A stretch of 64,000 nucleotides of DNA from Nitrosopumilus sp. (GCA_965218695.1 OZ244651.1:2232337-2296336), one strand, 5' to 3'; numbered from the stretch's first letter, positions 4,348 through 53,187 are shown. The notes: generated from the sequence alone by a model not told the origin. Translations and numbers: made by a program.

Positions 4348-4353
4348 GAACGG

Positions 4354-5266: not shown

Positions 5267-5449
5267 TCATTGGTAGGCATCCGGAGTGTTGGAAGGTTTT
5301 TTCTCTTTATAGCAGGAGGCATAGTGGCCATAGTGGTAGGCGCCTTTATGATCAGAGGCACCATGCACATGTGGGACAAGCCAAAAGACGATGATAATGA
5401 CTAAAAGGCATGTATGGTAAACCAGTATCGTAATTGCTTGATGATTCAT
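5267..5449 (-). CDS. small His-rich membrane protein, hypothetical
   Basis: 60-aa ORF with one TM helix followed by HVHGASDHKGAYHYGHY. Its start overlaps the divergent ORF at 5434, so at most one of the two starts is right. Confidence 0.25.
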   Translation of the reverse strand: MNHQAITILVYHTCLLVIIIVFWLVPHVHGASDHKGAYHYGHYASCYKEKKPSNTPDAYQ

Positions 5450-23544: not shown

Positions 23545-23600
23545 GATGCTCGGGAGGGCACTGTTCAGAATTGTGGATCAATGTTAAATCATGCCAAGCC

Positions 23601-23720
23601 AGATCATCTATGGTAACCCGTCCCCGGACCTATCCTTGCCTTGCGTCCGGCTTGCCACTTTGTGTATGCCTTTTGCCCTCTTAAGCATTATCTGCGGACA
23701 GAATCCTGCCAGATCCGCAG
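23601..23720. repeat. about 120-bp repeat arm shared with 34047-34319
   Basis: AGATCATCTATGGTAACCCGTCCCCGG...CTTAAGCATTATCTGCGGACAGAATCCTGCCAGATCCGCAG aligns by eye with both inverted arms of the palindromic element at 34047-34319. Confidence 0.75.
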
Positions 23721-23773
23721 AAGATACGGCTGTTTGCCCCGCGACGTGACATGCATAATCCCTTCCGGGGGGT

Positions 23774-23881: not shown

Positions 23882-24955
23882 CTACACCCTCATCAGCTTC
23901 TTCATCTTGGTGCGGTACAGCGTCTTGTTCCTGTCCACGTACAGGGTGCCGTCCGACAGCATATGCCATATGATCGTCAGCATCTTGTTTGCGACGTGCG
24001 TCATGGCAATGTACGGCTTGTGCCTCTTGATCAGGCGGGCATAGTACCCCTTCATCCTCACGTCGTGGTGCGCTGCGACCATCGCGCACTGGATCATCAC
24101 CCAGTTGACCTTCCGGTTCGAATCCTTCTTCATCCTGCCGTGGTACAACGTGTCGCCGGACTGGTGGAGCGTGGGACACATCCCGGCCCAAGACACGAGC
24201 TTCTTTGGGCTGTCAAACCTTTCGATGCCGTCGATCTCCGCTGACACGAGTGCAACCGAGAACACGCTCATCCCCGTCATGCTCAGTATTTTGGAGCTGT
24301 AGCTGCCGCTGACGTAGCGCCTGATCTCGCCTTCGGTCTTTTTTATCTCGCCGTTGTAGTGCCTTATCCTGGATATGCAGCGGTCAAGGACGAACCTGTC
24401 GTGGACGCTTCCCATGTCCGCCCCCACGAGGTATTCCAGTACCTTCTCGCTCCAGACGTCTTGTCCACCGTCCTTGGGGCTGATGTCGTACTTGTCAGTC
24501 AGCGTGTGCCCGAAGTTGATCTCGCTTGTCCTGTCCTGCACCAGACGGATCTGGTATCTGATGACCTGCTTTATCCCACGGGATTCCGTGGATCCTATGT
24601 GGCATGCGGGAACCAAATCGGCCCTGAGCAGGTGGGCAAGCGTCCTTGCGTCGACGGTGTCGTTCTTTATGCTGGCCCACGCGATTGCCTTGATCTTGAA
24701 CGGGTTGGCAAGGTCGATGGGGATTCCCGCCTGCTCAAACGCGTCTGCCGTCTTTATCCAGTGGTTTCCGGTAGACTCGCAGACCGCCCTGCACTGCCCG
24801 TATTCGGTCCTGGCACTTGCCGCAAACTCGGAGGCGCCTGCCACGGTGTTGGCGTACGAGGATTCCTCGAGAATGTTTCCCTTTGAATCCATTATGCACG
24901 TGACGCACTTCCTCTTTCCAATGTCTATTCCGATACTCTTTTCTATTTTTCTCAC
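23882..24955 (-). CDS. IS110-family DEDD recombinase/transposase
   Basis: 357-aa ORF with IGIDIGKRK, CESTGNHW, NDTVDARTLAHLLRADL and the C-terminal LVSWAGMCPTLHQSGD (Transposase_20-like). Confidence 0.88.
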   Translation of the reverse strand: MRKIEKSIGIDIGKRKCVTCIMDSKGNILEESSYANTVAGASEFAASARTEYGQCRAVCESTGNHWIKTADAFEQAGIPIDLANPFKIKAIAWASIKNDTVDARTLAHLLRADLVPACHIGSTESRGIKQVIRYQIRLVQDRTSEINFGHTLTDKYDISPKDGGQDVWSEKVLEYLVGADMGSVHDRFVLDRCISRIRHYNGEIKKTEGEIRRYVSGSYSSKILSMTGMSVFSVALVSAEIDGIERFDSPKKLVSWAGMCPTLHQSGDTLYHGRMKKDSNRKVNWVMIQCAMVAAHHDVRMKGYYARLIKRHKPYIAMTHVANKMLTIIWHMLSDGTLYVDRNKTLYRTKMKKLMRV

Positions 24956-25149: not shown

Positions 25150-26913
25150 GTAATTGTTTCGCTTTTTGAAGTAACCGGATGGCCTAGCGGACATCCATGG
25201 TACCGGGAATGAATCTAATAATTTCGTACTCGGGATGACAAAGTTAGACCATCGCGATCCAAGTACGAGTGGGTGCCAGTCCCTTCGATCTTTGGAAATG
25301 AAGGAACCAGCACGCCGAACATGCTTGGAGGCGGAGGAATTTAAGGCAATGCACGAACACTCCTTGCCGCAAATCCCGCTGGATGCCGGGGCGTGCATGG
25401 AACCAGGGTGCAGGTGCTGCCTGCACTGGGCAAAAATGTTCGGCGACGTGCTAGGCCCAACCCGCAAGATCCTGGAGGCAGCCTGCGAAATTGCAGGCGA
25501 GTCGGGCGCAGACTGGAAGGAGGCCGGGCGCCTGCAGGCGCTCGTCTCGTCCCTCACAGAGGACAACAAGAGGTACGCCAAGACAAACAGGGATCTCAAC
25601 GCCAAGGCAAACGGGATCAGCGTCCCCGCGCCCAAGAAGAAGGCCGGTCAGGGAAAGAAGGCCGCCGGCAGGCCCAAGGGGCAGAAACCCACCGTCAACT
25701 GCAGGCCAAAGCGCGTGGACCGCGTCGAGGAGATCGACTGCAAGGAGTGCCCCGACTGCGGCGGCGGGCTCTCTGGGAGGGTGACTGCCGAGTACGATCG
25801 CATCGTGACTGTCATGCGCGTCCTGTTGGAGAACGTCAGGTACGTCATCAAGCGGCGCTGGTGCCGCGTGTGCAAAAGACAGGTCTCCGGGAGGGTTCCC
25901 GGCGCGGCAAAACACGCGCGCCGTTCATCAAACTTTGACGCGGTCATGACGTCCCTGAACATGAATGGCATGTCGCATGCCAGGACCGCAGAATTTGGCG
26001 GCGACGCGTTGGGGCACGTAACCTCGCGCTCGTCTGCCTACCGCGGCAAGATCAGGCAGGCCGGGCGCATGGCGCCGGAACGCGATTCGGTAAGGGAGCG
26101 CGTGCTGGAGGCGCCACACCTGAACGTAGACGAGTTTCACTGGCCGCTGGGCGGCAAGCGCGGCTACGGGATAGTGGCTCTGGCAAAAAATCACTGCCTC
26201 GTGGAGGTGGCCGACTCGCGGGACATCAAGACGCTCCGCCAGACGCTCCCGGGCTACCGGGGAACCATAACGCAGGACTCGTATCCCGGGTGGCTCCACG
26301 TGGGATCGTGCCGCCAGATGTGCGTGTGGCACCAGGAACGCCTGGTGCAAAAGGACGTCCTGACCAACCCCGGGGGTGACGTTCCGGCGTTTCTGGACAG
26401 GCTGTCGGCAATCCACATGAAGATTTACCGCGCCTCCAGGATCAAGGACCGGCACCCAAGGATCGTCGCTGCCCGCTGCATAGACGCGGAGCTGCGCGAG
26501 CTGATGAACGAACCGTTTGCAGGCGACGGGGACGGCACCATCGCCCGGCACAAGAAGAGGTACCCGCGGGAGGGATATTTCATGACCACCTGCCTGCACG
26601 TGGACGGCATCGAGCCTGACAACAACGCAGTCGAGAGGGCCAACCGGAGGTTCGTGGCCGTAAGGAGCGACGGGGGCGGGAACCGCTCCAGGAAGGGCAT
26701 GGATGCCAACTCGATCCTGTTCACGCTGCTGGCAACTGACAGGATCAACAAGGACAGCTTCTTTGATCACCTGGTCCGCTCGTCTTCCGGGGACGGATGA
26801 GGCGCCGTCCGACGGCACGTGCAGTGCGTCACGGGGAAAAAGAGTCCACGGTAAGGGGAAGGCTGCACCCGCTCCGCTGCCAAGCAGCCCACTTCAAAAA
26901 GCGAAACTATTAC
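25150..26913 (+). mobile_element. IS66-family insertion sequence, single-ORF type (1764 bp)
   Basis: TIR GTAATTGTTTCGCTTTTTGAAGT (25150-25172) matches the reverse complement of 26891-26913 at 22 of 23. The 8-bp TSD is TACTGGAA (25142-25149 and 26914-26921). Confidence 0.9.
25235..26800 (+). CDS. IS66-family transposase (TnpC-like)
   Basis: 521-aa ORF with the zinc-ribbon CPDCGG...CRVCK and the motifs NVDEFHW, TQDSYPGW and DNNAVERANRRFV. Confidence 0.88.
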   Translation: MTKLDHRDPSTSGCQSLRSLEMKEPARRTCLEAEEFKAMHEHSLPQIPLDAGACMEPGCRCCLHWAKMFGDVLGPTRKILEAACEIAGESGADWKEAGRLQALVSSLTEDNKRYAKTNRDLNAKANGISVPAPKKKAGQGKKAAGRPKGQKPTVNCRPKRVDRVEEIDCKECPDCGGGLSGRVTAEYDRIVTVMRVLLENVRYVIKRRWCRVCKRQVSGRVPGAAKHARRSSNFDAVMTSLNMNGMSHARTAEFGGDALGHVTSRSSAYRGKIRQAGRMAPERDSVRERVLEAPHLNVDEFHWPLGGKRGYGIVALAKNHCLVEVADSRDIKTLRQTLPGYRGTITQDSYPGWLHVGSCRQMCVWHQERLVQKDVLTNPGGDVPAFLDRLSAIHMKIYRASRIKDRHPRIVAARCIDAELRELMNEPFAGDGDGTIARHKKRYPREGYFMTTCLHVDGIEPDNNAVERANRRFVAVRSDGGGNRSRKGMDANSILFTLLATDRINKDSFFDHLVRSSSGDG

Positions 26914-29471: not shown

Positions 29472-30032
29472 CTAGTCATAAATCATTAGATTCTTCTCTT
29501 CTAGCATCGAATGAAGGTTGTTCACTGACCGGTAAACGTCGGGCTCTTTTTTGGCACCCGTACAGACAAGCTTTCCTGAGGAAAATAGCAAAATGACTGT
29601 CTTGGGGTCTAGCATTCTATGAATGAGTCCTGGAAACTGTTCTGGCTCGTACATGCTTCGCGGCAGCGTCCTTGCGGCCTGTTCAAGATGAATCCTTCCA
29701 CCTAGGTTGATCGATGCTACGATGTTCTGAATCTCTACTACTGCGTCCTTCTTTACCTTGATTCCGCCCTTGCGGAGCTTTTGAACCACCGTCTTGACTG
29801 CCTTTCTTGCCATCTCCTCTGATTTGGAGCCTGTACATACCATCTTTCCCGAGGTGAAGATCAGTGTCGCAGTCTTGGGTACCTTGAGTCTGAAGACCAG
29901 TCCGGGAAACTGATCCGGATGGTACTCTACGTCCGGAAACGTCCTTGTGATCTCGTTGAGATCCATCTTTTGATCCACAGATGCCGAGGCTACAACATTT
30001 TCCACACTTACAATAGGTTTCGTTTGTGGCAT
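29472..30032 (-). CDS. tbp: TATA-box-binding protein
   Basis: 186-aa ORF with two direct repeats, each carrying QFPGL...SGK(M/L)VCTG(S/A)K. Confidence 0.95.
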   Translation of the reverse strand: MPQTKPIVSVENVVASASVDQKMDLNEITRTFPDVEYHPDQFPGLVFRLKVPKTATLIFTSGKMVCTGSKSEEMARKAVKTVVQKLRKGGIKVKKDAVVEIQNIVASINLGGRIHLEQAARTLPRSMYEPEQFPGLIHRMLDPKTVILLFSSGKLVCTGAKKEPDVYRSVNNLHSMLEEKNLMIYD

Positions 30033-30124
30033 ATTCCGCTTTTTGGTATTTGAACTATAATAAAAAAGTGCTTTTCTCGTCCGGTATTAGACATGCTTTT
30101 TAAGGAAAGTGTGCTCGCAGGGCG

Positions 30125-31480
30125 ATGACCCGGGAAAAGAGGCCCAAGAGGCACGACAAGATGCTGGAATTGGAGTCCGTGGTGCGCTGGCGGGGGCAGC
30201 TCAACGAGAGCGGCATCAGCAGCGGCATAAAAATCAACACCTACACGCGCGCCGTCTACCTGTCCAAGCTGTACCATTTCAACGAGTGGCTGGTCAAGCG
30301 CGAGTTCACCGTGCGCGTGCCGGTCGTAAAAAGCAAAAGGACGGTCCGCGAAAGCAGGCGGATGCCGTTTGCCAACGTGGAGGTGCTGCTCCACTTCGGC
30401 GAGGACGACAACGCCAAGAAGGTAAAGAGGATCGTTCAGGACTACCTGGCGGTGCTGCGCGACAGGGGGCTGTCCAACTCCACCATGGCCGGAGCGTGCT
30501 CGGCCATCAAGTCGTACTTTGACACGAACGACGTGGTAGTCAACGTCAAGCCACATTCGCTCAAGAGAAACGGATCAGTGGCTGTCGACGAGACCAAGCT
30601 GACGCTGCCGGAATTCTACAAGATGATGACCGTCGGCAAGATGAACCACCTGACGCGCGCCGTCCTCATGGTAAAGTTCCAGGCGGGGCTGGACAGGAGC
30701 ACGCTCGCCGACAGGTTCAACTTCCACGCGTACGCGCAGATCGCGAAGTTCTGCGGGACCAAGAACCACCGCGAATGGAGCCTCGACAAGTGCCCGATCC
30801 CGATCAGGCTCGTGCGGGTAAAGACCGGCGTCCAGTTCACCACCTTCATAGACCGCGACGCGCTGGCGGCGCTCAAGGACTACCTGGCGTGGAGGGAGGA
30901 AAATCACCCGTCGCACGATCCCGACGGCCCGATCTTCATCACCACGAAGGGCGAGCCGGTGTCCGTCGAGTGGGTGTCGCACACGTTCGCGAAGGGGGCC
31001 AAGTACTCCATGACGCAAAAGCGCCTGGGCCCACGCAAGGTCAAGCTGACGTCGCACTCCGTGCGCCACCTGCTCAAGACGACCCTCATCACCTGCGGGT
31101 GCGACCGATACGTGGCAGACTACGCCATCGGGCACGCGCCCGACACCTATGAAAGGCCGGATCTGTGTCCGGACAAGCTGAGGCGCGAGTACGCCAAGGC
31201 GTCGCACGCGATCAACATAATCTCCAAGGCCGCATCGAAGATAAACGACATGAGACCCGCAAACGCCATGGAAAAGGATCTGGAGGCAAGCAAGGCCAAG
31301 GTAGAGGAGTTGGAAAAGAAGGTCAACGAACTGAAGGCCGAGATTGCCAAGAAGAACGCCAGAAGCGCAGACGCCGTATCCAAGCTCGACATGGTGGTAA
31401 GGGCGATCATCGACGCGTCAGGCGATCCCGACGGGGACTTCCGCCAGAACCTCAAGGACAGGCTCGGCGGACTGCCTTAG
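30125..31480 (+). CDS. tyrosine recombinase / integrase
   Basis: 451-aa ORF with the catalytic-region motifs LTSHSVRHLLKT (HxxR) and AIGHAPDTYE (H...Y), followed by a coiled-coil C-terminal tail. Confidence 0.8.
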   Translation: MTREKRPKRHDKMLELESVVRWRGQLNESGISSGIKINTYTRAVYLSKLYHFNEWLVKREFTVRVPVVKSKRTVRESRRMPFANVEVLLHFGEDDNAKKVKRIVQDYLAVLRDRGLSNSTMAGACSAIKSYFDTNDVVVNVKPHSLKRNGSVAVDETKLTLPEFYKMMTVGKMNHLTRAVLMVKFQAGLDRSTLADRFNFHAYAQIAKFCGTKNHREWSLDKCPIPIRLVRVKTGVQFTTFIDRDALAALKDYLAWREENHPSHDPDGPIFITTKGEPVSVEWVSHTFAKGAKYSMTQKRLGPRKVKLTSHSVRHLLKTTLITCGCDRYVADYAIGHAPDTYERPDLCPDKLRREYAKASHAINIISKAASKINDMRPANAMEKDLEASKAKVEELEKKVNELKAEIAKKNARSADAVSKLDMVVRAIIDASGDPDGDFRQNLKDRLGGLP

Positions 31481-31649
31481 CGTGCCTTGACTCCAACGCG
31501 ACTCTCAATCTGCAAGAGACGGGATAATTGCGGGTTGTTCCGTGCGGACGCGATGCTTGCCCTCAGTAACCAACAGATTAGGCAACGCATGAAACAGAAA
31601 CGGCAGGCACAGTCAAAAATACTGGTTCAAATGCGGCAACCATAAAGTC

Positions 31650-31979
31650 CTACTCGTCATCCTTTTCAATACCCCTTTTCCTGTCGTAACGGCGGATGAT
31701 TACTGGCAAGATTGCGCCTGCCATGAAAAGCGGACTGGCAGTGACTAAGAACGTGAGAAAGAATACGTGCCTTTCCGTTTTTATCTCGCACGGCCACGTG
31801 ATTCCGTCCACCGAACATGGCGGAATCTGCATTTGCCATTGGGGGCAAGGTTGCATGATTCCGTTCACCTCATACCAGCAATTGTCAGAATTGTGCCTGA
31901 CGGCAGGCTCCAGAGGGAGTGCCAGCGCAAGATATGCGATCACGGCCACCGGGAGCAAGAAGAAAAACCCCCATGACAA
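31650..31979 (-). CDS. Cys-rich small membrane protein, paralogue A (possibly frameshifted)
   Basis: 109 aa from a TTG start, closely similar to the protein at 52815-53183. The conserved ATG (MKTGHKIILV, near 32003) is out of frame by 1 nt because of an extra base in a G5T5 run (plus strand A5C5, 31963-31972). Confidence 0.55.
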   Translation of the reverse strand: MSWGFFFLLPVAVIAYLALALPLEPAVRHNSDNCWYEVNGIMQPCPQWQMQIPPCSVDGITWPCEIKTERHVFFLTFLVTASPLFMAGAILPVIIRRYDRKRGIEKDDE

Positions 31980-32000
31980 GAATAATCTTGTGCCCGGTTT

Positions 32001-32267
32001 TCATTTTTTGATCCTCCACAATGCCAAGACGCCCATGCAGGCAAACGACACACCCAGCATGAGGAACCCAGCCGGTTCTTCTGGCACGACGTCAAAAAGA
32101 TTTGTGGACGCCGACGTTCCAAAGAAGTTGAGCCCACTAATGTGTGATGACTCGTTGTTGCAATCTGGCAGCATTTCGCATGTGAGCCAAACAACGTGTG
32201 GCACCTGAGGCCAAACTGCAAAGAAGGCCAGAGTCGTGATTGCCGGGGCTTTGTACCGATTTCTCAT
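32001..32267 (-). CDS. small secreted protein with a PEP-CTERM-like C-terminal tail
   Basis: 88-aa ORF with a signal peptide (MRNRYKAPAITTLAFFAV) and the C-terminal VPEEPAGFLMLGVSFACMGVLALWRIKK. Confidence 0.5.
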   Translation of the reverse strand: MRNRYKAPAITTLAFFAVWPQVPHVVWLTCEMLPDCNNESSHISGLNFFGTSASTNLFDVVPEEPAGFLMLGVSFACMGVLALWRIKK

Positions 32268-32289
32268 CTTCTGAATTTCGGCTTCGTTT

Positions 32290-33888
32290 GTAACTGTGTA
32301 GTTTTTTGATCAAATGCTGAATTCCATGTCTCCAAGAAACTATGTATTTTTTTGACATAGGACCAGACCCTCGCGCAGGACCGTGCCAAGATCATCTCCC
32401 CTTGCCTTGCATGTCTGCTTGATGCTCATCAGCGTGGCAATGGCGTCTGCGCCCTTCTTTGACCTGCTCCCGTTGCTGTTCTTGCGCAGGATGACGCACG
32501 GCCTGATGGCCCGCTCTGCCCGGTTGTTGTGGTATTCGACATCGTCTGTCTCCAGAAACGCAAACAGGTGATCCCTTTCCCGCACCAGCCTCTTGCGCAT
32601 CCTGTTGCAGTGCTTGCAGTCGCGGTTCTTCTCGAGCCTGCCTATCATGGACGCGATGCGACGATCCAGCCTCTTCTTTGCGGCAAGCGCGTCTGCCCCT
32701 CCCGGAACGGCGCCGTCGACGTGCGAGTCCCGCAGTATCGCGCGCAGCGTCCTTGCGTGCCGACGGTAGTCCTGGCCGGGATTCTTGTATCTCAGGGTGG
32801 CCTTGACGTCCCGGACGTAATGCAGGTGGCACTTTTGGTGCATGGCTCCTATGACGTTCCACGCTCCCCACGAGTCAGACGTCACGCATCCCGGGTAGTC
32901 CTTGCCGAGCATCTTTTTTGGAACCTTCGAGTTCCTGCGGCGGTGCACCTCGTAGATTACGGCGTACCTTGTTACCACCGCCCACAGCCAGTAGTTCGTG
33001 CCGTCGACGCGCCAGACGGACTCGTCCCCGTTTATCGCAGGCGAGTTTCTTACCTCCTCCTTGATCTTCTCGTACAGCGGCCCGAGCTCCCGGGCCATCC
33101 TGCACACCATACGGTTTATCGCAGATTCCGTGATTCTTGCCGAGTACATCATCATGACAATATTGCATATTCTGAGGTCTGACATGCCGTGCAGCCTGAG
33201 GATGACCATCATTATCATAAAGTTGATCCCGTACCTGGAGTTTGGCAGTGCCAGCGGAGTCCTGCCGGACACGGTCTTCTTGCAGTTCCTGCAACGTCTT
33301 CTCTTTACTGTCACCTTGATGTGCTTTAGTTCCGTCTTGGCAGCCTCCCTTACCACCTTTGTGTACGTGGATACGCACTCGGAGAGGTCGGAGCTGCCGC
33401 AGTTGTCGCACGTGTGGGGATCTGCCGTCTCCTCTGCGTCTATTCTTTCAGGACGCGCAAGGCCCGTGCGCCTGTGGACGCTTGGCTTGCCCTTGGCCTT
33501 TGTGCGGCGTCTGGCACTGCCCGTCTTTTTGTCAGGTTTTGCGCCGATGCTCCTTGCAACGGCAGCCGATATGGTGCCCCTTGCTTCCTGCAACTCTGCC
33601 GTGAGGTCCTGGATCTGCCTGAGGGCGGCAGCGTAAAGATCAGTGAGTTTGGCTATCTGCTGGTCCTTTTTGGCCAGCTGCCCTGCCATCATCTCCACTT
33701 TTTCCTCCAGTTCTGCAATCCTTGACTCGGAATTATCATCAGACATAATGCAAACCGTGGGAACTGATGATCTAAAAATTGGAATGGAGAGAAAAACTCG
33801 ATCAAGTGATTAAAAATAGTTTCAAAAAAACTACACAGACGTTTGTAGGCATGGAATTCAACATTTGATCAAAAAACTACACAGTTAC
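32290..33888 (-). mobile_element. IS66-family insertion sequence, single-ORF type (1599 bp)
   Basis: 39-bp TIR GTAACTGTGTAGTTTTTTGATCAAATGCTGAATTCCATG matches the reverse complement of 33850-33888 at 38 of 39. The 8-bp TSD is CTTCGTTT (32282-32289 and 33889-33896). Confidence 0.92.
32340..33746 (-). CDS. IS66-family transposase (TnpC-like)
   Basis: 468-aa ORF with an N-terminal coiled coil, CDNCGS...CRNCKK, NGDESVWRV, VTSDSWGAW and HNNRAERAIRPCV. Confidence 0.88.
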   Translation of the reverse strand: MSDDNSESRIAELEEKVEMMAGQLAKKDQQIAKLTDLYAAALRQIQDLTAELQEARGTISAAVARSIGAKPDKKTGSARRRTKAKGKPSVHRRTGLARPERIDAEETADPHTCDNCGSSDLSECVSTYTKVVREAAKTELKHIKVTVKRRRCRNCKKTVSGRTPLALPNSRYGINFMIMMVILRLHGMSDLRICNIVMMMYSARITESAINRMVCRMARELGPLYEKIKEEVRNSPAINGDESVWRVDGTNYWLWAVVTRYAVIYEVHRRRNSKVPKKMLGKDYPGCVTSDSWGAWNVIGAMHQKCHLHYVRDVKATLRYKNPGQDYRRHARTLRAILRDSHVDGAVPGGADALAAKKRLDRRIASMIGRLEKNRDCKHCNRMRKRLVRERDHLFAFLETDDVEYHNNRAERAIRPCVILRKNSNGSRSKKGADAIATLMSIKQTCKARGDDLGTVLREGLVLCQKNT

Positions 33889-33918
33889 CTTCGTTTAATT
33901 ATAATGGTTCCGAGTGTC

Positions 33919-34319
33919 GGTTCTGTAACGTTATCGTGTGCTGTGTATGGATCTTCTCCGGGTTGGATCGCGGTTGAGGCTACACATTCACGGGGGCTCT
34001 TCAAACAAGACGGTCTGACGCATATCGATTGGATGAATTTTGTCTAAGATCCACATCTATGTTAACCCCTCCCCGGGCTTGTCCAAGTTTTGCGTCCAGC
34101 TTGTCATATTGAGTATGTTTTTTTCCTTCTTAAGCGTTACCTGCATGCAGAATCCTGCCAGATCCGCGGGACAACAAGATCCAAACCTTGCCGTTTTCTG
34201 CAAATTTGACTGAATTCTTCTTGCAGGTAACGCTTAAGAAGACAAAGGGCATACCCAAAGTGACAAGCTGGACGCAAAACACGGATGAGTCCGGGGAGGG
34301 GTTACATATATGTGGATCT
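33919..34319. repeat. degenerate third copy of the 52-bp TIR end module, followed by a 273-bp palindromic element
   Basis: 33919-33970 (GGTTCTGTAACGTTATCG...TATGGATCTTCTCCGGGTTGGATCG) resembles 23493-23550. 34047-34150 and 34214-34319 are inverted copies of each other, and both resemble 23601-23720. Confidence 0.7.
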
Positions 34320-34440
34320 GGAATGCCCTGTGGAGCATTTCTGGTGATCCTACTGATTGGTTTGCTGAAATCTTCGCCTTAGTCTGGCTTTCTTTGTAAT
34401 TCTCTGTCGTGATTAAAGAAAAAGATTAGTTGTCTACGTC

Positions 34441-35004
34441 TTATCCGCCTCTTCCCAGATGTTCTGTTATCTTTTCTAGGTCCAGAGCCTCGTCATCCCA
34501 TTGTTCATGGTATTTACCATTTTCACGTAGAACAAATGTAGATTGAATTCCTTGTGAATCATAGTATGTTCCATGTACTAAATCATCTACGGGATTATCC
34601 AGATAAACCAAGACTTGAGCATCTCTCTCGAATGTTGGAACCGGTTCAAATTTGGTTGTGACTTGATTGTGCGTTCCACCTACAGTCCTTACTGTGATAA
34701 GAGCACCTTCTAGCCCATCATCGCCCAAAAGAACATCGGTTACACGAAGATCAGTCAGTGTAAAGACCTTGGGGAAGACCAATTCACCTACACTAAAGTA
34801 GGTAAGATATGTCCTTGAATCATCTACGATGCCTTTAACGGCGATATCGGCTTTTTCTGCCATTTTTTCTGCTGTGCCTTCGACCATAAACCCATGTGTT
34901 TTACTTTCATGAGGTATGTATCCCATCACTGCGACAGTAAAAACCAACATGACCGTTAGAGAAACTCCAATGGCTGGAATGGACACCAATTTTTTACGGC
35001 TCAT
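34441..35004 (-). CDS. membrane-anchored hypothetical protein (AT-rich island cargo)
   Basis: The likely start is MSRKKLVSIPAIGVSLTVMLVFTVAV (ATG at 35004); the track ORF extends to GTG 35034. I recognise no family. Confidence 0.55.
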   Translation of the reverse strand: MSRKKLVSIPAIGVSLTVMLVFTVAVMGYIPHESKTHGFMVEGTAEKMAEKADIAVKGIVDDSRTYLTYFSVGELVFPKVFTLTDLRVTDVLLGDDGLEGALITVRTVGGTHNQVTTKFEPVPTFERDAQVLVYLDNPVDDLVHGTYYDSQGIQSTFVLRENGKYHEQWDDEALDLEKITEHLGRGG

Positions 35005-35304
35005 TTTCAGTATTTTCCTTGAATTTCTGATCACCTAAATTTGCCAGTGCCATGTAACATTATCAGGTGCCAAGCATGGAATATGAATTTTCTCTGAAAT
35101 GGTGTGGTGGATGGAGAAAGGCATTTTATGGGAACTGGTAATGCGGTCCACCCCGTTGGAAGTATGAGCAGCTCTCTGTCTTCAACTTGGCAATTCTTCG
35201 TGCACGCCTCTGCATAATATTCCATCGATGAGTATGCTCTTGGTGTGGTAGAAGACTGATGTTGGATCCGTCGGAATGTGTTTCCCGTCAGGTGGATCTT
35301 CTGG

Positions 35305-36054
35305 CTACTGCTCCCATGCTCTTGCCTGTGCCTCTTCGAGGTACCTGTCGCAGTCATCACCGTCTTCTATCAGGATACAATCGCCGTACTCGCCGACGAC
35401 TAGCCAGTAGTATAGGTCTGCTTCGCGCATCTCATACGGGGGACGTCCAAGCAGTGTTTGGGTCTCCACAATCTCCAGTATCTCCGGTGCCAGCACACTC
35501 ATGCTGCCAAACATGTCCTCCAGGCTTTCACTGACCGCGCCTACTGGGTATTCTGCCTCCAGGTATGCGTGAAGTTTTTGCAGCGGCTCCAGATCAGGCT
35601 GCTGGTACGTTCCGGCCAGCTTGCTTTCATGTATTACGAGTGCTGCCACCTTTTCCGGATTTACTACCGCGTCTGTCAGTACAACAAAGTTGGTTGTACG
35701 TATACCCAAGTTGATGGATTCCTCCATGTGTGGGTTGCCTTTGCTTGCCTCCAGCCTTTCGTTCCAGCGGGTATAATTCCACCTGATCTCTTCTATTCCG
35801 TCAAAGTGTTCAACTAACGCAGGGGACATTTCGTACGGTATGCGGTAGCCGTCAAAGATCTTCCCGTTTGAGATGGATTCATGCCTCAACTCGGCTATTG
35901 ACCGCTCTTCCTGTGTTTCCTCGCTCGGGGCATCTGCCAGCCCGTCATCATTTCCTACAAAGGACAGTCCGGCCTGCACTACCAGAAGCAATGCCACAAC
36001 TGCAAGCATTCCAGCTAGGATTAATTTTTTGCCAGTCATTGCCTTTTTGTTCAT
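35305..36054 (-). CDS. secreted/anchored hypothetical protein (AT-rich island cargo)
   Basis: 249-aa ORF with the signal anchor MNKKAMTGKKLILAGMLAVVALLLVV and an acidic mature part. Confidence 0.6.
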   Translation of the reverse strand: MNKKAMTGKKLILAGMLAVVALLLVVQAGLSFVGNDDGLADAPSEETQEERSIAELRHESISNGKIFDGYRIPYEMSPALVEHFDGIEEIRWNYTRWNERLEASKGNPHMEESINLGIRTTNFVVLTDAVVNPEKVAALVIHESKLAGTYQQPDLEPLQKLHAYLEAEYPVGAVSESLEDMFGSMSVLAPEILEIVETQTLLGRPPYEMREADLYYWLVVGEYGDCILIEDGDDCDRYLEEAQARAWEQ

Positions 36055-36387
36055 TGTTGATGTGGGAAAGTTTGGTTTAATAGGCTTTGATTAAAGATCT
36101 GTGGGCTCTGGTAAGTTTTGGTGATCTGTCGTTCACTGTTCAAAAGTGTGTTTTGGGATATTCTCAGGATTCGGTTCCGCCGCATTTCATCAGGGCGTTC
36201 GAAAGTGTCATGCCCCCAATAATGTGGTTCAAAAGTGAACTGAGTCACATTCACACCTTGGTGGTAGATTTTCGTGATCTCAGTACGATCTTTTGAGTAA
36301 CAAATGAGAGATCACTAGAATTTGCCAGAGCCATCGGCACCATACGCACATACAGGTCGGGGGCTTATATCGATAAGTATACAACCT

Positions 36388-37719
36388 TTACAGTTGTAAA
36401 GTCGTGCGTACCGCGTTGTTCCACGCCATCTTGTGGACGTACTTGATCCTGTAGTCGTCTTCCACGAGTCCGGCGTACAGTTTAACGAATCCGTCCATGT
36501 CGTCCAAAAGCGACAAGGCCCATTTGATGCCGTCCAAGACGCTAGATACAATCACTTGGCAGCCGTGTTCCATCCCGATCCGTTCCGCTTCCAGCACTGC
36601 CGCTCCCATGTCGCCGACCGGCGTAGCGGCCAGCAGTCTGTATTTGTTGGCAGATGGGGCTTTGGAACCGCCTCTTACGCGCCGCACGATCACTGGGGTG
36701 ATCGACTTTCCAGGCCGGATCTCGACTAACTCGTAGACGAATCCGGTATCTGGATCGAACTCCTTCACGTGCCCGAACGCGCTAGCTCCCGTACCGCGCA
36801 CAACCGTCTCGGTTACCGACGCGCCGCCCCACGCGCCGTTTCCAGCAGCTTCCCTGTAGGCAGCATGAACTGCCAGCGTAGGAAGTCTTATCCTTGCCTG
36901 GTCGCCGCACTTGAAGTGCTTTTCAAGTATCCTTTCCACATCATTTGCAGTCAGGCCTACGGGCCTGTCGAGTTTTGCCTTCCCTATCTCGCGCAAGTCA
37001 ACCAAGACCTTGAGCGCGTAAACCAGAAGGTCTCTCGGATTGGCCTTGCCGTCCTCCACGTGGCCCAGCATGGACAAGAACGCCTCCCTGACTCCCCCGC
37101 CACCGATGTCGCCGGGATATTCAAATCCATACGGCGCCTTCCAGTCAAACGAATGATCAGACCACCCCGATCTCCGATCCGCAGAGAAGCCGTTGGACTC
37201 CAGAAACGGCGTGACAGTCCCGGCATCCAGATTGCGCCCGGAATAGCCGCCCGGAATGTCTGAGCGGTGCAGCCGCACGTCCTGTCCGGGATCGGTGCAT
37301 TTCTTGAGCAACGACGTGATCATGACCGTGACTGCCGCCCCGTTGCCTGACGACGCCACCGTTTCCACCATTTCCTTGGCCAGCTTGTACGGTGCGTGCC
37401 CGCCACCGGAGGCAGCTATATTCAGGCATTCTCGGAGAATATGACGTGCATTCATCATTTTTGCAGGGAAGAAATGGCATATAAGCGCGGCACTCAGCGT
37501 CAGGAGGTAGCGGCTGGCGGCAATCCTCCGGGAACTGACGTTCTCTGCGGACTGGACATAAATCTTGTATTGCTCAAGAATGTCTGCGGTAAAGGAGCCA
37601 TCATATGTTTTCTTGGTCTTGCGAACCAGATCCTCGTCCTGTCGGTCAGTCACGCACATAGTGGGCGGATGGTCGGGTGGCTTGCCTGCATCGTGTAGTC
37701 GCTCTTGCACCAACCACAT
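36388..37719 (-). CDS. orphan 443-aa protein of unknown family
   Basis: Long ORF with protein-like composition. An alternative start is MCVTDRQ at 37659. The segment FDPDTGFVYELVEIRPGK is reminiscent of a PD-(D/E)xK-type nuclease signature, but I cannot assign a family. Confidence 0.6.
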   Translation of the reverse strand: MWLVQERLHDAGKPPDHPPTMCVTDRQDEDLVRKTKKTYDGSFTADILEQYKIYVQSAENVSSRRIAASRYLLTLSAALICHFFPAKMMNARHILRECLNIAASGGGHAPYKLAKEMVETVASSGNGAAVTVMITSLLKKCTDPGQDVRLHRSDIPGGYSGRNLDAGTVTPFLESNGFSADRRSGWSDHSFDWKAPYGFEYPGDIGGGGVREAFLSMLGHVEDGKANPRDLLVYALKVLVDLREIGKAKLDRPVGLTANDVERILEKHFKCGDQARIRLPTLAVHAAYREAAGNGAWGGASVTETVVRGTGASAFGHVKEFDPDTGFVYELVEIRPGKSITPVIVRRVRGGSKAPSANKYRLLAATPVGDMGAAVLEAERIGMEHGCQVIVSSVLDGIKWALSLLDDMDGFVKLYAGLVEDDYRIKYVHKMAWNNAVRTTLQL

Positions 37720-37901
37720 CTGCGCCCGTCTTTCCAGATGTTTACTTCAAACCATTCCATTGCTGTCTCGTCATCGGGAAACTTTTCAAACAGTTCTGTC
37801 AGGGTTATCCCCTTGCCGATGCGGTCTTGGGGCGGTCTGGGCACGTACCCGTTCTGGTAACTGCTTAGGTTCACGCCTAGGCTCGTCTTGCAATTGGTCA
37901 A
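37650..37901 (-). pseudogene. IS1595-family transposase relic (N-terminal zinc-ribbon segment only)
   Basis: GITLTELFEKFPDDETAMEWFEVNIWKDGRRCGWCKS matches the N-terminal Zn-ribbon region of IS1595/ISXO2-like transposases. No DDE domain follows, and the 5' part is interrupted by a MITE. Confidence 0.6.
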
Positions 37902-37950
37902 GTTTACGCCTGCTAATCCTGAAATTCACGTACGAACCTAAGCAGTTACC
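37856..37950. mobile_element. 95-bp MITE with IS66-like termini
   Basis: Perfect 17-bp TIR GGTAACTGCTTAGGTTC (37856-37872) pairs with GAACCTAAGCAGTTACC (37934-37950). The flanking 7-bp direct repeat is CCGTTCT (37849-37855 and 37951-37957). The terminus GTAACTG.TTAG resembles the TIR of the IS66 at 32290. Confidence 0.8.
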
Positions 37951-37999
37951 CCGTTCTGCGACGAATGATTTAATTTAGAACCGCGACAGGTAGCATCTA

Positions 38000-39121
38000 G
38001 TGAATTTTACAGACATCGGTCTTGACCAAATCTTCTCAACAGGCGACGACACCAACCCCCTGCTGATGCTGGTCTGGATCCTGCCGATAATCCTCTTTGT
38101 GTTCTACGGACAACGGATCCAGCTGTATGTGACCTCGGGGGAGATCAACAAGGCCATCAAGAAGCTTGACGGGTTCAGGACAGAGGCCAGAACCGAACTA
38201 ATCAACTATGTGAATCAGAACCTAGAGCCAAAAGACGATCCGGTAAGGAAGATTAACCGCTTTCTGGACTATTTCACGATCATGCCAGTAGACATGGATC
38301 CTGCAGGCATAGTGGAAAAGGTCAGGCACACAGTCAGATCCAGGGAGGACTACACCAGGGAGCATGCACGGTCACTCTCGCCTGGAGTCGGTGATCTGGA
38401 ACTGAGCAAGGTTCAGACCCTAATCGAGATTGCATCCTCGCTGCAGATGATTCACAAGATCATCAACCACATGTTCCTGACTGCAAAGAGACAAAACAAC
38501 TATCCGCTGATCCTGCCCCTGCAGATGATTCTCCCATTCATAATGGAGCATGCAGTGGCGATGAAGGAGGCAATCCCCGCATTCAAGTCAGGACAGCCCA
38601 TAGGCGACGGGATAGGGCCCATGGTGGTTGGAAGAATGATGTTGGAGAGCAAAAAGGAGGCAGCGGCGTTTCAGACGGTTCTGGCAAGGACCGAGTTTGA
38701 GGGCAGGACGGTGCTTCTCCTGAAGGCAAAGGGGCCTGACTCCACTGTGGGACGGCCTGCAGACGCGCTGGAGGGCATCATCTCCAAGGACAGGATGGAC
38801 ATGATAATAATGGTCGATGCGGCACTAAAGATGGAAGGTGAGGAGTCTGCGTCCGTGGCGCACGGGTTTGGCGCGGCAATAGGAGGAATCGGGACGGAGA
38901 GGTTTCAGATCGAGGCGGTTGCAACCGACAACGGCATCCCGGTACTCTCGATTGTGGTAAAGCAGTCGGTCCGGGAGGCCATAACCCTCATGACCAGGAA
39001 CATATCCAATCAGGCAGACAACGTGCGATCCCAGGTGTATGAGATGATTCTTGAAAATACCCGGCCGGGCCAGTCAGTACTGGTGATTGGCGTGGGCAAC
39101 ACGGCAGGAGTTCTGCAATGA
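38000..39121 (+). CDS. conserved archaeal membrane-anchored protein (DUF1512-like)
   Basis: 373-aa ORF with a GTG start and an N-terminal TM (LLMLVWILPIILFVFYGQRIQ). The family name is from memory. Confidence 0.55.
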   Translation: MNFTDIGLDQIFSTGDDTNPLLMLVWILPIILFVFYGQRIQLYVTSGEINKAIKKLDGFRTEARTELINYVNQNLEPKDDPVRKINRFLDYFTIMPVDMDPAGIVEKVRHTVRSREDYTREHARSLSPGVGDLELSKVQTLIEIASSLQMIHKIINHMFLTAKRQNNYPLILPLQMILPFIMEHAVAMKEAIPAFKSGQPIGDGIGPMVVGRMMLESKKEAAAFQTVLARTEFEGRTVLLLKAKGPDSTVGRPADALEGIISKDRMDMIIMVDAALKMEGEESASVAHGFGAAIGGIGTERFQIEAVATDNGIPVLSIVVKQSVREAITLMTRNISNQADNVRSQVYEMILENTRPGQSVLVIGVGNTAGVLQ

Positions 39122-40222: not shown

Positions 40223-40276
40223 GCCATTAAAATGATTATCTGTGAGGCTTAAATTGGGTTGTTTTTAGGATTCGTT

Positions 40277-40350
40277 GGGATCGTGGTCTAGCTTGGTATG
40301 ATTCTGCGTTTGGGACGCAGAGGTCGCGCGTTCAAATCTCGCCGATCCCA
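40277..40350 (+). tRNA. tRNA-Pro (anticodon UGG)
   Basis: Hand-folded. Acceptor stem GGGATCG/CGATCCC. Anticodon stem CTGCG/CGCAG with loop TT-TGG-GA. T arm GCGCG-TTCAAAT-CTCGC with one C-U mismatch. Discriminator A, and no encoded CCA. Confidence 0.8.
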
Positions 40351-40493
40351 TATGTTATAACCGAGCCAAGACGTGGTGTGGGTGCCGGGCAATGAAGAAG
40401 AGTTAGAGTGATGATGATGATTATACAGTGAAATAACCCAATTGGCACTGAGCTCCGGCATGTTTTTATGAATTCCAGCATCCATTACTCCTG

Positions 40494-48919: not shown

Positions 48920-51397
48920 TTATACCTTCACGGATTGCCGTCTCTTGTAGACGCCAAGATATATGCCAATTCCGACTGTTATTGCAACCAGGAGGGCGAT
49001 CCATATCCCGTACTCGGGTCCGGTCTCCACAACCTCAATTTCAGTGACGGTTTGGGTGGGCAGACTGGTGCTGTCATCAACCACAAGAAAACTCGACTCG
49101 TAAAAGTCGGGTTTTAGGACCGACTCTGACACTGCAAATATCTTGATGTTGCCTGCGCCGATTCCAAGGCTTTGCGTATCCTCTGCAGCCACCGTGATCA
49201 CGGTACGGTCTGCACTTATCTCCTGGGTCTGGGACATCACCTCCCCACTGCTGCTTGTCAGAAAGTAGATGATTGAATCTGCGCCATCGGTACCTATCTC
49301 GATCTCAAGGGCCTCTCCCTTTTGAACGATGTCTGCTACATCGGCATATTGGATGGTGGGGAACTTGACCTCCTCAAACTTTGACCACTGGCCTGCCGGG
49401 AACGGGTATGACTCGTCATCAAATGCGCTGACACGGATTGTCCTTGCCTCCGGACTGTATGAATTCAGGTAGAACGGGCCGTTGCTTATCACTGCATGAT
49501 CATTTTCTGCAATCCATGCTGCAGACGCGCCGTACCGGTCCTGAAGGTATTCTGTATCCAAGCCATCCAGTGCGGCAGGCACATGTCCCTCATCGTTGAA
49601 CTCCAGCAGGGACTCCCTTACGAGGCCTGCATCGTTTGGAATCAGCAGTGAAAGCCAGCTGATGCCCTTGCTTGTGGCAGCTGATCTTGAAAATGACGCC
49701 TTTCCGTCAATCACCACGTCTTCCATGGCTGCTGTGATCTCCCACGGTACGGAGCTCCACAACGAGGCCCAGTCTGCAATCTCGTTTTCATCAAAGTGCC
49801 AATAGTCCACGTAGACCTCGATGGTGTCATCATCGACAGGATTTACGCCGATTATTGTCTGGGTGTACTGGGAGGCCCTTGGCGTAAATGACGAGTCAAA
49901 CGTCTTGTCGTTTTCACCGGCCTCGCTTCCCCATTCCATCACAAAATAAAGCGAGTACATGATATCGTTCATGTCCATCCATTCCCCGTTGTGCCATTTG
50001 CTGAACTTGAAGTCAAATGTAGCCTTGCTTGTGGCAGACGCGTTGTGTGGCACATTGGTCCACTCCTGCAGCAGCGGATCCCATGTTATTGCCCCGTCCG
50101 GAAGATCCAGCTTGCCGTCCGGCCCTGCAGTCTCAACCTGGTAGTCTGCCCTTACCGGAAACGTCTCCCCGGTGTACGGATGCTTGAATGTTGCAGGATC
50201 CGACAGGATGCCCCATATGTGATTGCTGTAGACGTCTGTCAGGCCGGCCACCGGATTCCACGAACCCTGGTAGATGTGCTTGACTCCTATGGCGATGTCC
50301 CCGTCATCGCTTCTTGCATTAATCGGGGTGAACCTGGTTGGAATTCCTGCGCCAAAGTCGTTGATTATGCCCGAGGTGCCCTCATTTACCACATACTGGT
50401 CAGTATTGCTTGCAAGAAAGACCCTCACAGACTCTGAAATGCCCTCGGTAACCCCGTCCTGAATCAGGGAGGCCCTCTCTTCGGCGTCCGAATAGTTTCC
50501 GGTGTATATGTTCTGGGTCAGCAAATCCAGCTTTTCATTTTCATAGTTCCAGTACGTCGGATCGTTGAATCCTGGCATGTTTGAGAACCACGGGGCATAC
50601 ATCTGTCCGATTCCGACGGAGTCATACCTTACAAATGCAGAACTGCCCCATCCTTCCGTGTACAGGTGCCATTGCAGGCCGGCCGGATCCGAGCCATAGA
50701 CCACGGCAAAGGCCTTGTTGAGATCACCAAAATCCCTGTTGACTGTGAATCCCATTCTTTCCAGCTCTGATGCCAGAATCTCGCCTATGGATTTTCTGAT
50801 CGGATCATCGCTTCTGATAAATATCGTAACCTCGACTGGCACAGAGTCTGCCAACCACACGCCATCTGTCTTGACTGCCCCACGCTCAATCATGGATTTT
50901 GAGATAATCTCTTCTGCAAGCGCCGGATTGTATACAAAGTTAAACCCCTCCACCTGCTCAATGACTGTCAGGTACTCCGGGTGTGACGGATCATAGTATG
51001 ACACGGTTGGCGCACCAAACCCCCCCATCAGCTCGTTTACAAACAGCTTCCTATCGACCAGATAGTTCAGTGCAAATCTGGCATCCCTGTCGGCAAATGG
51101 GTTGAGCTGTTCGGTTTCGGCCGGATTTACAAGCATGCTAAACGAACCGCCAGTAGAGTTAAACACGTGCAGCCCCCGCTGGGCATCCTTTCCCTCCAGC
51201 CTGTCTGAGGGAATGGCCCAGTAGTAGATGTCCAGGTTCCCGTTCCGGACCTCCTCCAGCGCTATGTTCTCATCCAGATACTGGATAAACTTGATGGAAT
51301 CCACGTACGTGCCCTGGTCTGCAAACGCCTCTCCAAACACGGCCACACTAAGAATAATCGGTACTGCCACCAGCCACTTCATCATAGTGTCATCCAC
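48920..51397 (-). CDS. ABC-transporter solute-binding protein, family 5 (peptide/nickel type), with C-terminal extension and anchor
   Basis: 825-aa ORF with a signal peptide and NPFADRDARFALNYLVDRKLFVNELMGG, typical of SBP_bac_5. The C-terminus reads GPEYGIWIALLVAITVGIGIYLGVYKRRQ. Confidence 0.85.
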   Translation of the reverse strand: MDDTMMKWLVAVPIILSVAVFGEAFADQGTYVDSIKFIQYLDENIALEEVRNGNLDIYYWAIPSDRLEGKDAQRGLHVFNSTGGSFSMLVNPAETEQLNPFADRDARFALNYLVDRKLFVNELMGGFGAPTVSYYDPSHPEYLTVIEQVEGFNFVYNPALAEEIISKSMIERGAVKTDGVWLADSVPVEVTIFIRSDDPIRKSIGEILASELERMGFTVNRDFGDLNKAFAVVYGSDPAGLQWHLYTEGWGSSAFVRYDSVGIGQMYAPWFSNMPGFNDPTYWNYENEKLDLLTQNIYTGNYSDAEERASLIQDGVTEGISESVRVFLASNTDQYVVNEGTSGIINDFGAGIPTRFTPINARSDDGDIAIGVKHIYQGSWNPVAGLTDVYSNHIWGILSDPATFKHPYTGETFPVRADYQVETAGPDGKLDLPDGAITWDPLLQEWTNVPHNASATSKATFDFKFSKWHNGEWMDMNDIMYSLYFVMEWGSEAGENDKTFDSSFTPRASQYTQTIIGVNPVDDDTIEVYVDYWHFDENEIADWASLWSSVPWEITAAMEDVVIDGKASFSRSAATSKGISWLSLLIPNDAGLVRESLLEFNDEGHVPAALDGLDTEYLQDRYGASAAWIAENDHAVISNGPFYLNSYSPEARTIRVSAFDDESYPFPAGQWSKFEEVKFPTIQYADVADIVQKGEALEIEIGTDGADSIIYFLTSSSGEVMSQTQEISADRTVITVAAEDTQSLGIGAGNIKIFAVSESVLKPDFYESSFLVVDDSTSLPTQTVTEIEVVETGPEYGIWIALLVAITVGIGIYLGVYKRRQSVKV

Positions 51398-51461
51398 ATG
51401 TAATCATATATTAATGCCGCTGAATCCCGCGGGTAGTTGGAACTTGCCAGCACCCAAAGCC

Positions 51462-52595: not shown

Positions 52596-52814
52596 AGCAC
52601 CCAAAGCCACCCACACATGTTTGATGCGTCTGCACCGTCTCCAATTGAACTCGGACAGGCAATAATCAAGATGCAGTTTCCAAGACATGGGGCTTTGAAT
52701 TTGGACTACGATGTTTGTTGTTCCAAAGTCGCAACCGGCAGATCCGGCAACGCACGAAGCAGAAACGGCAGGTACGCTCAAAGGAGATGGCGCAGGTACC
52801 GCAACCGCAAAGTT

Positions 52815-53183
52815 CTACCCTTTGTCTCTTTCAATACCCCTCTTCCTGTCGTAGCGACGGATAATTATTGACAGGACGGCGCCTGTTATGAAAAGCGGGC
52901 TGGCAGTGACCAAGAATGTGAGAAAGAATACGAACCTTTCGGTTTTTATCTCGCATGGCCACGTGATTCCGTCCACCGGACATGGTGGAATCTGCGTTTC
53001 CCATGGGGGGCAAGGCTGCATGATCCCGTTTACCTCATACCAGCAGTTGTCAGAATTGTACGTGGCGGCAGGCTCCAGAGGGAGCACCAGCGCAAGAGAT
53101 GCGATCGTAGCTGACGGGAGCAAAAAGAAGACCCCCAGGACAAGAATAATTTTGTGCCTAGTTTTCATTTTCTGATTCCCCAC
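52815..53183 (-). CDS. Cys-rich small membrane protein, paralogue B (intact)
   Basis: The probable start is MKTRHKIILVLGVFFLLP at 53168. The conserved core is NSDNCWYEVNGIMQPCP.W..QIPPC.VDGITWPCEIKTER, followed by a TM and RRYDRKRGIE. Confidence 0.6.
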   Translation of the reverse strand: MGNQKMKTRHKIILVLGVFFLLPSATIASLALVLPLEPAATYNSDNCWYEVNGIMQPCPPWETQIPPCPVDGITWPCEIKTERFVFFLTFLVTASPLFITGAVLSIIIRRYDRKRGIERDKG

Positions 53184-53187
53184 TAGC

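Follow-up and report, generated by a model that had tools for sequence, protein, structure and literature searches.

A worn integrase-linked island in the promoter spacer between tbp and a DUF1512 gene of Nitrosopumilus sp.

An island of accessory DNA was analysed in a 64,000-nucleotide stretch of Nitrosopumilus sp. (GCA_965218695.1 OZ244651.1:2232337-2296336), hereafter the window. The island is placed between tbp, the gene of the TATA-box-binding protein (TBP), and a gene with DUF1512 domains. It carries a tyrosine integrase at its left edge, a small cysteine-rich membrane protein gene (p109), an 88-aa open reading frame (ORF), an IS66-family insertion sequence (IS), two anchored proteins (p197 and p249), a restriction-endonuclease homologue, the relic of another IS, and miniature inverted-repeat transposable elements (MITEs). 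The features are listed in Table 1, and related loci are referred to by L numbers. The initial annotation, read from the window alone, had marked this interval as integrase-linked accessory DNA with unrecognisable and possibly undescribed cargo. The first part of this proposal agreed with the results. The second did not, as the largest cargo gene belongs to a known endonuclease family and looks inactivated.

Table 1. Features of the island and its flanks, with positions in the window.
Feature	Position	Strand	Remarks
tbp (TATA-box-binding protein)	29472..30032	-	left flanking core gene; Pfam TBP 1.2e-58
tbp TATA region	~30051-30063	.	retained; promoter block AACTATAATAAAA conserved in relatives
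Left junction	30065..30079	.	similarity to intergenic region of relatives ends here; blastn match to L004/L005 stops at 30078
Tyrosine integrase, psiM2/psiM100 type	30125..31480	+	451 aa; PF00589; C-terminal coiled coil; GC content at third codon positions (GC3) 0.87
Non-coding stretch past integrase	31481..31565	.	~80% identical to L091 equivalent; end of integrase module
Duplicated segment	31568..32029	.	82% identical to window 52733-53192; carries 109-aa ORF
p109, Cys-rich membrane-protein ORF	31650-31979	-	109 aa; in duplicated segment
88-aa ORF	32001..32267	-	sorting-signal-like C-terminus: PEEP, hydrophobic stretch, RIKK
IS66-family element	32290..33888	-	single 468-aa transposase 32340-33746; Pfam 1.5e-34, NCBIfam 9.7e-67
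42-bp sequence, single copy	33917..33958	.	probable cassette-end remnant
Palindromic MITE-like element	34047..34319	.	273 bp; 101-nt arms, 81% complementary; related to window 23599-23722
p197, N-terminally anchored	34441..35034	-	AT-rich, GC3 0.33; gene caller elsewhere starts at 35004 (187 aa)
p249, signal-anchored	35305..36054	-	two conserved Cys; confined to this lineage; 15 homologues
Short dispersed repeat	36104..36300	.	79-80% identical to L009 and L091 sequences
SacI/EcoT38I-type restriction-endonuclease homologue	36388..37458	-	356 aa; from homologues and Foldseek
8xMP-family N-terminus-like fragment	37471..37578	-	24.5 bits, cut-off 30; inside spurious 87-aa extension
IS1595 transposase relic	37650..37901 (MITE from 37857)	-	weak Zn-ribbon match; only N-terminal zinc-ribbon region left
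93-bp MITE	37857..37949	.	perfect 16-17-bp terminal inverted repeats; 9-bp target duplication CCCGTTCTG at 37848-37856 and 37950-37958
Right junction and DUF1512 promoter block GACGAATGATTTAATTTAG	37959..37999	.	blastn and intergenic comparison; block retained
DUF1512 gene	38000..39121	+	right flanking core gene, two-domain; Pfam 4.7e-57 and 1.5e-63; synteny
Transposase genes of the window	1043-2356, 6453-7412, 9260-10384, 10608-11570, 13377-14639, 23882-24955, 25235-26800, 32340-33746, 51228-52568

Insertion between tbp and DUF1512

The relatives keep a conserved gene order, i.e., metAP, a small zinc-ribbon ORF, DUF1512, tbp, and a tRNA-binding protein. Both tbp and DUF1512 were held by 41 related loci, and 36 of these showed a gap of 200 bp or less (median 144 bp). 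The same gap is 7,967 bp in the window, with inserted DNA of approximately 7.9 kb. Compared with nearly all relatives, this DNA is an insertion. The same genes without an integrase, which the initial annotation had set as the refuting case, are not carried by the relatives.

In the relatives, a left block (…GTATTTGAACTATAATAAAAGCACTCGCCAT) and the right block GACGAATGATTTAATTTAG are common to the spacers. Of these, the left one persists in the window to ~30063 and the right one restarts at 37959, after which the housekeeping genes resume with the DUF1512 start, as had been annotated. Because both blocks were kept, the insertion landed between the core promoters of the two flanking genes without damage to either.

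Two contigs of the same species (L001 and L002), recognized by exact-protein look-up of TBP and 99.9% identical in DNA, both carry the island. In the closest related species (L004/L005, 78-84% identity), the tbp-DUF1512 gap is 418 bp without any island gene, and its DNA is unrelated and partly tandem-repeated. Short tandem repeats were found inside this empty spacer of L004 at 2356-2698, i.e., CCGGCTATCTGA in two copies and GGTAGGCC in three. As the spacer is 418 bp instead of ~145 bp and holds tandem repeats, it may itself be the scar of a past insertion. An exact-pattern scan of Joint Genome Institute (JGI) metagenomes with the tbp promoter gave no match to an empty site of the same species.

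The integrase

The integrase ORF is intact and lies 92 nt from tbp, as the initial annotation had described, and it passed the PF00589 model (32.6 bits against a cut-off of 27.1). Its start is 46-60 bp inside the left junction and the gene reads inward. Homologues of 450-540 aa formed at least 120 clusters at 90% identity, with several paralogues per genome. The catalytic residues K233, H311, R314, H337, and Y342 were conserved in 114-120 of 120 homologues. The catalytic set of tyrosine recombinases, i.e., beta-hairpin Lys, His-x-x-Arg, His/Trp, and Tyr nucleophile, was complete except for the first arginine (Arg I). The Arg-I motif, canonically TG-L-R-x-S-E-L, reads Q-A-G-L-D-x-S-T-L, and Asp190 stands at the Arg position in 120/120 members. 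R197, seven residues after Asp190, was conserved in 117/120.

In HMMER, Asp190 aligned with the Arg of AGLRVSEL in Pyrococcus abyssi XerA, in a segment where the alignment is weak. The family profile matched the XerA structure 5hxy (E 0.0017). When the profile was compared with Escherichia coli XerD, only the C-terminal half was aligned and the Arg-I region was not reached.

Among annotated proteins, the nearest relative was the integrase (Int) encoded by prophage psiM100 and phage psiM2 of Methanothermobacter, with an E value of 2e-8 in tblastn and 5e-17 in pairwise comparison. The psiM100 Int (Leisingerviridae; L101, 1291-2499) shares 23.5% identity over aa 98-409 and the C-terminal coiled coil. 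At the Arg-I position it has Gly (SGMGSAEL against AGLDRSTL), the downstream Arg is conserved (LRRLN against LADRFN), and its canonically spaced Tyr aligns with Y342. Since the psiM100/psiM2 Int is likewise without Arg at this motif, the absent Arg I was treated as a trait of the integrase clade and not as decay. The feature thus spans at least two archaeal phyla, as the host of psiM100 belongs to a different phylum from the host of the island. The layout is also the same: the annotated attL core of psiM100 is 48 bp upstream of the integrase start, and the island junction is 46-60 bp upstream. However, with 28 kb and defined attachment (att) cores, psiM100 is a complete tailed provirus, whereas the island has neither viral genes nor att cores.

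In L097-L099 (10001-21368), homologous integrases (58-59% identity) are separated by 90 bp from the ribosomal-protein L18 start. They stand at the head of a larger multigene insertion including a Cys-rich 90-aa Zn-finger ORF and a ParM-like (ALP_N) protein. A tRNA-Leu(taa) gene was found in the L097 insertion and in the related L096 element, and L098 holds a second integrase copy 7.3 kb downstream, i.e., tandem elements. Further homologues are at other loci in L091 and L096. The family is thus carried by mobile elements. In blastn, the integrase module (30177-31560), with ~80 bp past the stop codon included, was 70-73% identical to L091 and L096-L099, and L092 also matched. A pattern-based scan of IMG/VR contigs with the single sequence and the family alignment found no relatives.

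These features allow a broader proposal, which is doubtful. The integrases may form an uncharacterised large archaeal recombinase clade (at least 120 clusters, psiM2/psiM100-related) without canonical Arg I, where Asp is invariant or, in psiM100, Gly is found. The active site may be rebuilt by the Arg seven residues downstream together with the coiled coil. The clade would place elements in divergent promoter spacers beside highly expressed housekeeping genes, i.e., tbp here and L18 in L097-L099, through att cores too short to see. If true, this would be a mechanistic variant of site-specific integration. What can be stated is that this integrase family, widespread in thaumarchaea, and the psiM2-type viral integrases have a non-canonical active-site motif in common. 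The invariant Asp at the position of the first arginine is the only unusual feature of the island.

Cargo genes and interior of the island

The largest cargo gene had been annotated as an orphan protein of 443 aa. However, 14/14 homologues are ~355 aa long and align only to residues 88-443, and a conserved TATA-like element, CTTATATG, precedes Met88 by ~25 nt in the window, L009, and L007. The extent of the homologues and this element define the shorter ORF of Table 1 as the true gene. The extra 87 N-terminal codons are read-through of upstream junk, i.e., the IS1595 relic and a weak 8xMP-like fragment. Literature searches on 8xMP and on a structure paper of EcoT38I were without relevant results.

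The gene product is a homologue of SacI/EcoT38I-type restriction endonucleases. Homologues at 30-43% identity carry PF09566 (SacI endonuclease), which the window protein itself did not match. The AlphaFold model, with a predicted local distance difference test score (pLDDT) of 80, matched EcoT38I (PDB 7e8r, 7edb) along its whole length (Foldseek E 8e-9, probability 1.0). When PDB was searched by sequence, whether with the protein, with its profile, or with a distant homologue, no useful match came up, and the fold search alone succeeded. Structure prediction, which had been suggested for the cargo, was informative for this protein and not for p249, of which the AF2 model (pLDDT 50) was unusable.

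The gene is 81% identical to L009. Some homologues are beside or fused to a DNA methyltransferase. L010 is a 28-kb circular virus-like contig in which the homologue comes directly after an N6/N4 methyltransferase. This contig (27,975 bp) was also found to encode a D5-type primase, a terminase-like ATPase, and a Phage_capsid_4 protein beside the complete pair of methyltransferase and SacI-like endonuclease. A virus-like contig of this type is a plausible vehicle for the SacI-like endonuclease family. A cytosine-methyltransferase fusion of a Staphylococcus epidermidis plasmid is 29% identical over 85% of the protein and has the canonical motif.

The active-site motif was mapped by alignment, not from an experimentally defined active site. 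In predicted beta-strands of the methyltransferase-linked homologues it reads G-D-[IV]…E-x-[IV]-E-[IV]-K (e.g., GDI...EAVEIK), whereas the window protein has G-H-V…E-L-V-E-I-R, i.e., H...E-x-R instead of D...E-x-K. Among close relatives, the first catalytic position is H or R, and the last is R, Q, or L. No methyltransferase was found among the island ORFs scanned with Pfam and NCBIfam, and none near the closest archaeal homologues. GAGCTC shows no avoidance in the window (9 observed, 9.1 expected). With two of three catalytic residues replaced, the protein is most likely a nuclease-dead derivative, which may be kept for another, probably DNA-binding, role. A SacI/EcoT38I-like clade without methyltransferase partner and catalytic residues is nevertheless conserved, and exaptation may apply.

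Two or three anchored or secreted proteins without known family had been noted in the AT-richer part of the island, and for p197 and p249 Pfam, NCBIfam, PHROGs, and PADLOC indeed gave no match. Among 1.84 billion proteins, p197 had only 16 weakly related representatives, none yielding annotation. With L093, p249 shares 94% identity. Both p197 and p249 have an N-terminal hydrophobic anchor, and from sequence a role at the surface or in secretion may be assumed.

The initial annotation had placed a duplicated Cys-rich gene within the island. In fact, the paralogue of p109 is outside, at 52824-53144. This intact copy (segment 52733-53192) has 80% aa identity and is located between an rve-type IS and a DUF192 gene. 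Relative to it, the island p109 has a 1-nt frameshift near the 5' end. The PEP-CTERM-like reading of the 88-aa ORF has its basis only in the C-terminal sequence, and no family model of Pfam, NCBIfam, PHROGs, or PADLOC matched.

Present cargo does little. It is comprised of a spoiled endonuclease homologue, two lineage-specific putative surface proteins, a frameshifted membrane protein, and an 88-aa sorting-signal-like peptide.

The IS66 element, the palindromic MITE, the IS1595 relic, and the second MITE are insertions into the island, and all of them had been noted in the initial annotation, the palindromic MITE as a palindrome with a TIR remnant. The IS66 has a DDE_Tnp_IS66 transposase, terminal inverted repeats of 64-67 bp (32290-32353 and 33825-33888), and an 8-bp target duplication, CTTCGTTT, as is usual for its family. 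Unlike IS66 elements in general, it has no TnpA/TnpB accessory ORFs, and we take it to be a candidate member of the single-ORF (ISBst12-like) group. It is missing in the 99.9%-identical strain L001, which shows recent movement. The palindromic MITE is broken up by other IS elements in L001. An Rfam scan found the tRNA-Pro gene of the window and a sub-threshold match of the palindrome to a plant-miRNA hairpin, which was judged a chance resemblance.

The stretch 33919-34055 is 99% identical to L093. The 42-bp sequence is found twice in L093 (1526-1567 and 3398-3439) as an inverted pair bracketing the p249 gene, an arrangement reminiscent of a mobile insertion cassette without transposase. Downstream of p249 (35029-35053) and of the endonuclease-like gene (36310-36334), the copies of a 25-nt direct repeat (84% identical) were also observed. 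It could be a shared terminator, a regulatory element, or part of a dispersed repeat.

The right end of the island is secondary. The IS1595 relic, 67% identical to the IS1595 transposase of L006/L007, appears truncated at both ends, and the 93-bp MITE sits inserted in it. Without the MITE, the gap between the conserved transposase N-terminus and host DNA is too small for a start codon and a terminal repeat. This points to a deletion of the IS end and of DNA beyond, possibly including attR.

By blastn against all fetched loci, the interior was divided into at least eight segments with separate nearest relatives. The AT-richer block was confirmed in GC and tetranucleotide scans, with GC of 0.41-0.45 at 33.75-35.25 kb and a tetranucleotide z of ~2.5. 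Within the island, tetranucleotide composition stands out in the integrase region and at 33.5-36.5 kb. Capsid, terminase, and portal genes were not found, and PHROGs matches were to the integrase only. With these matches and no integrase relatives in the pattern-based scan of IMG/VR, a viral origin was rejected. In PADLOC, all cargo proteins were negative, and the matches of the integrase were weak and of no evident relevance, e.g., LmuB to the coiled-coil tail.

Origin of the island and its host genome

The island is regarded, with little more than even confidence, as a decayed and likely immobile thaumarchaeal cryptic integrated element, placed in a permissive divergent-promoter spacer of ~145 bp and remodelled by IS and MITE activity. 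This reading is favoured by the empty sites, the mapped junctions, the edge integrase with its conserved catalytic residues, the homologous integrases at the edges of other insertions, the psiM100-like layout, and the target duplications of IS66 and MITE. Thaumarchaeal integrated elements with intergenic targets, att cores down to 8 bp, and restriction-modification cargo are documented (PMC6563490). The island is like the cryptic elements among them (Krupovic et al. 2019, PMC6563490) in its edge tyrosine integrase, intergenic target, small size, restriction-modification-related cargo, and internal IS, and in the absence of virion, conjugation, and casposase genes. Unlike them, it has no replication or partition genes, its right end is an IS relic, no att repeats were found, and its cargo is a patchwork of pieces found separately elsewhere.

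In the proposed course of events, at least the leading part of the DNA would have been brought in by the integrase, through site-specific recombination at a short att core, in the manner of other thaumarchaeal elements. An IS1595-associated deletion would have taken away the right att site. IS-driven shuffling among co-resident relatives may later have replaced or added cargo.

The att search was exact and mismatch-tolerant, and it compared the left end with the right end, the 3' flank of the integrase, and the internal boundaries. No exact repeat of 9 bp or more was found between the island ends, and the best imperfect end-to-end matches were below the 95th percentile of shuffled controls, which agrees with the initial annotation. 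The other comparisons likewise yielded no repeat above the controls. The ancestral spacer motif ATAAAAGCACTCGCCAT was found nowhere in the window. In published thaumarchaeal integrated elements, att cores are down to 8 bp, and some have none detectable (PMC6563490). The tRNA-Pro gene (40276-40351), the only tRNA gene of the window and outside the island as first noted, was ruled out as the integration target, because three syntenic core genes, contiguous in relatives, separate it from the island.

Several results weigh against a single integrated element. As no att repeat exceeded chance, entry via the integrase is not demonstrated. DNA similarity to the other integrase loci covers only the integrase gene and ~80 bp, and no cargo gene was found beside a homologous integrase at any other locus fetched. 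The p249 and endonuclease-like genes each occur singly in IS-rich regions of related genomes, unlinked to an integrase. Composition is heterogeneous, as GC3 is 0.87 in the integrase, 0.33 in p197, and host-like in the remainder. The main island ORFs include no replication, conjugation, or virion genes by Pfam, NCBIfam, PHROGs, or PADLOC. Finally, unrelated insertions that lack an integrase occupy this spacer in L021, L037, and L049. In L037, it is a 583-aa TnpB-like ORF, read from its C-terminal Zn-ribbon motif. In L021, a 3.4-kb block has a cupredoxin-like ORF and a large metallophosphoesterase-like ORF, as judged by reading the translations, and in L049 a 137-aa Met-rich secreted protein was found. 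L003 shows yet another neighbour at this site. The differing insertions in three other lineages show that the site is permissive.

The island may equally be an accretion of independent insertions, with the integrase module as one among them. In its strict form, the permissive spacer was filled by independent events, i.e., a solitary integrase module, the p109 duplicate, IS66, a p249 cassette bounded by terminal inverted repeats, an AT-rich p197 piece, the endonuclease-like gene, and IS1595, and the integrase moved only itself. This form is a serious, though less probable, explanation. The segments differing in nearest relatives and composition fit it, as do the unrelated insertions at the same spot and the number of transposase genes in the 64 kb. 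The L091 match stops at 31560, just short of the p109 duplicate beginning at 31568, and p249 between its 42-bp inverted repeats in L093 has the look of a mobile cassette. However, the integrase is placed right at the edge and faces inward, like those of psiM100 and L097-L099, and target duplications as independent boundaries were not found for most segments. This explanation is largely compatible with a decayed integrated element, and it differs only in how much DNA the integrase brought.

It is very improbable that the endonuclease-like protein and the two surface proteins form an undescribed defence or host-interaction system on a still-mobile element. The three genes are on the same strand, and the endonuclease-like clade is found at 57-83% identity in several genomes with intact frame and conserved promoter, suggesting selection. 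However, PADLOC and PHROGs gave no cargo match, and in the few loci compared the three genes were nowhere else neighbours. The intergenic gaps, at 270-333 bp, speak against an operon. The catalytic D and K are replaced, with R, Q, or L at the K position among close homologues, GAGCTC is not avoided, and the island has no att sites and a degraded right end. The undescribed cargo module of the initial annotation was thus not supported, as its genes occur singly elsewhere, never linked to the integrase.

An origin as ancestral core DNA lost by the relatives, to which the presence of the island in all three same-species contigs (the window, L001, and L002) would be favourable, is effectively refuted by synteny, because the relatives are without the island genes with their flanking genes mostly adjacent, and parallel precise loss would be needed in at least 36 lineages of Nitrosopumilus, Nitrosarchaeum, Nitrosotenuis, Cenarchaeum, and Nitrosopelagicus, each leaving the conserved ~145-bp spacer with its shared promoter blocks.

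The island is a worn-out patchwork of known kind. It holds no new system and nothing categorically new, and neither the endonuclease clade nor the integrase motif alters the current view of archaeal mobile elements. Its value is that of a clean worked example, in which a conserved 145-bp promoter spacer of ammonia-oxidising archaea was opened by a mobile element and then became a dumping ground for IS elements.

The window, with 53.7% GC, is from a high-GC, IS-dense member of Nitrosopumilaceae. A TBP protein scan with one genome per species matched only Nitrosopumilaceae and other Nitrososphaerota. Other archaeal genes of the flanks are the tRNA-Pro gene and methionine aminopeptidase, assigned by conserved synteny without a family scan. 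The IS load is very high, i.e., at least nine transposase genes from at least five IS families per 64 kb window, including IS5/DDE_Tnp_1, IS630/DDE_3, IS110, IS66 (two copies), and rve types. We infer, and only infer, that the host belongs to an IS-expanded high-GC lineage of the sort known among host-associated thaumarchaea. The IS-swamped genome looks like that of a symbiont. In Cenarchaeum symbiosum A, zero such IS transposases were reported (PMC6563490).

The second IS66-family element, at 25150-26912, has a 521-aa transposase (25235-26800) and GC of 0.63. It is missing in the same-species contig L002 and is likewise polymorphic between strains. The two blastn alignments flanking it have 9 bp in common, suggesting a target duplication.

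The top tetranucleotide outlier of the window is at 2000-5500 (z up to 4.4) and exceeds the island. A 445-aa ORF (3010-4347) in this region had a sub-threshold, probably spurious match as its sole family match, and it adjoins the IS5-type transposase (1043-2356). GGGCCC was rarer than expected in the window, i.e., 3 observed against 10.5 expected in a maximal-order Markov model.

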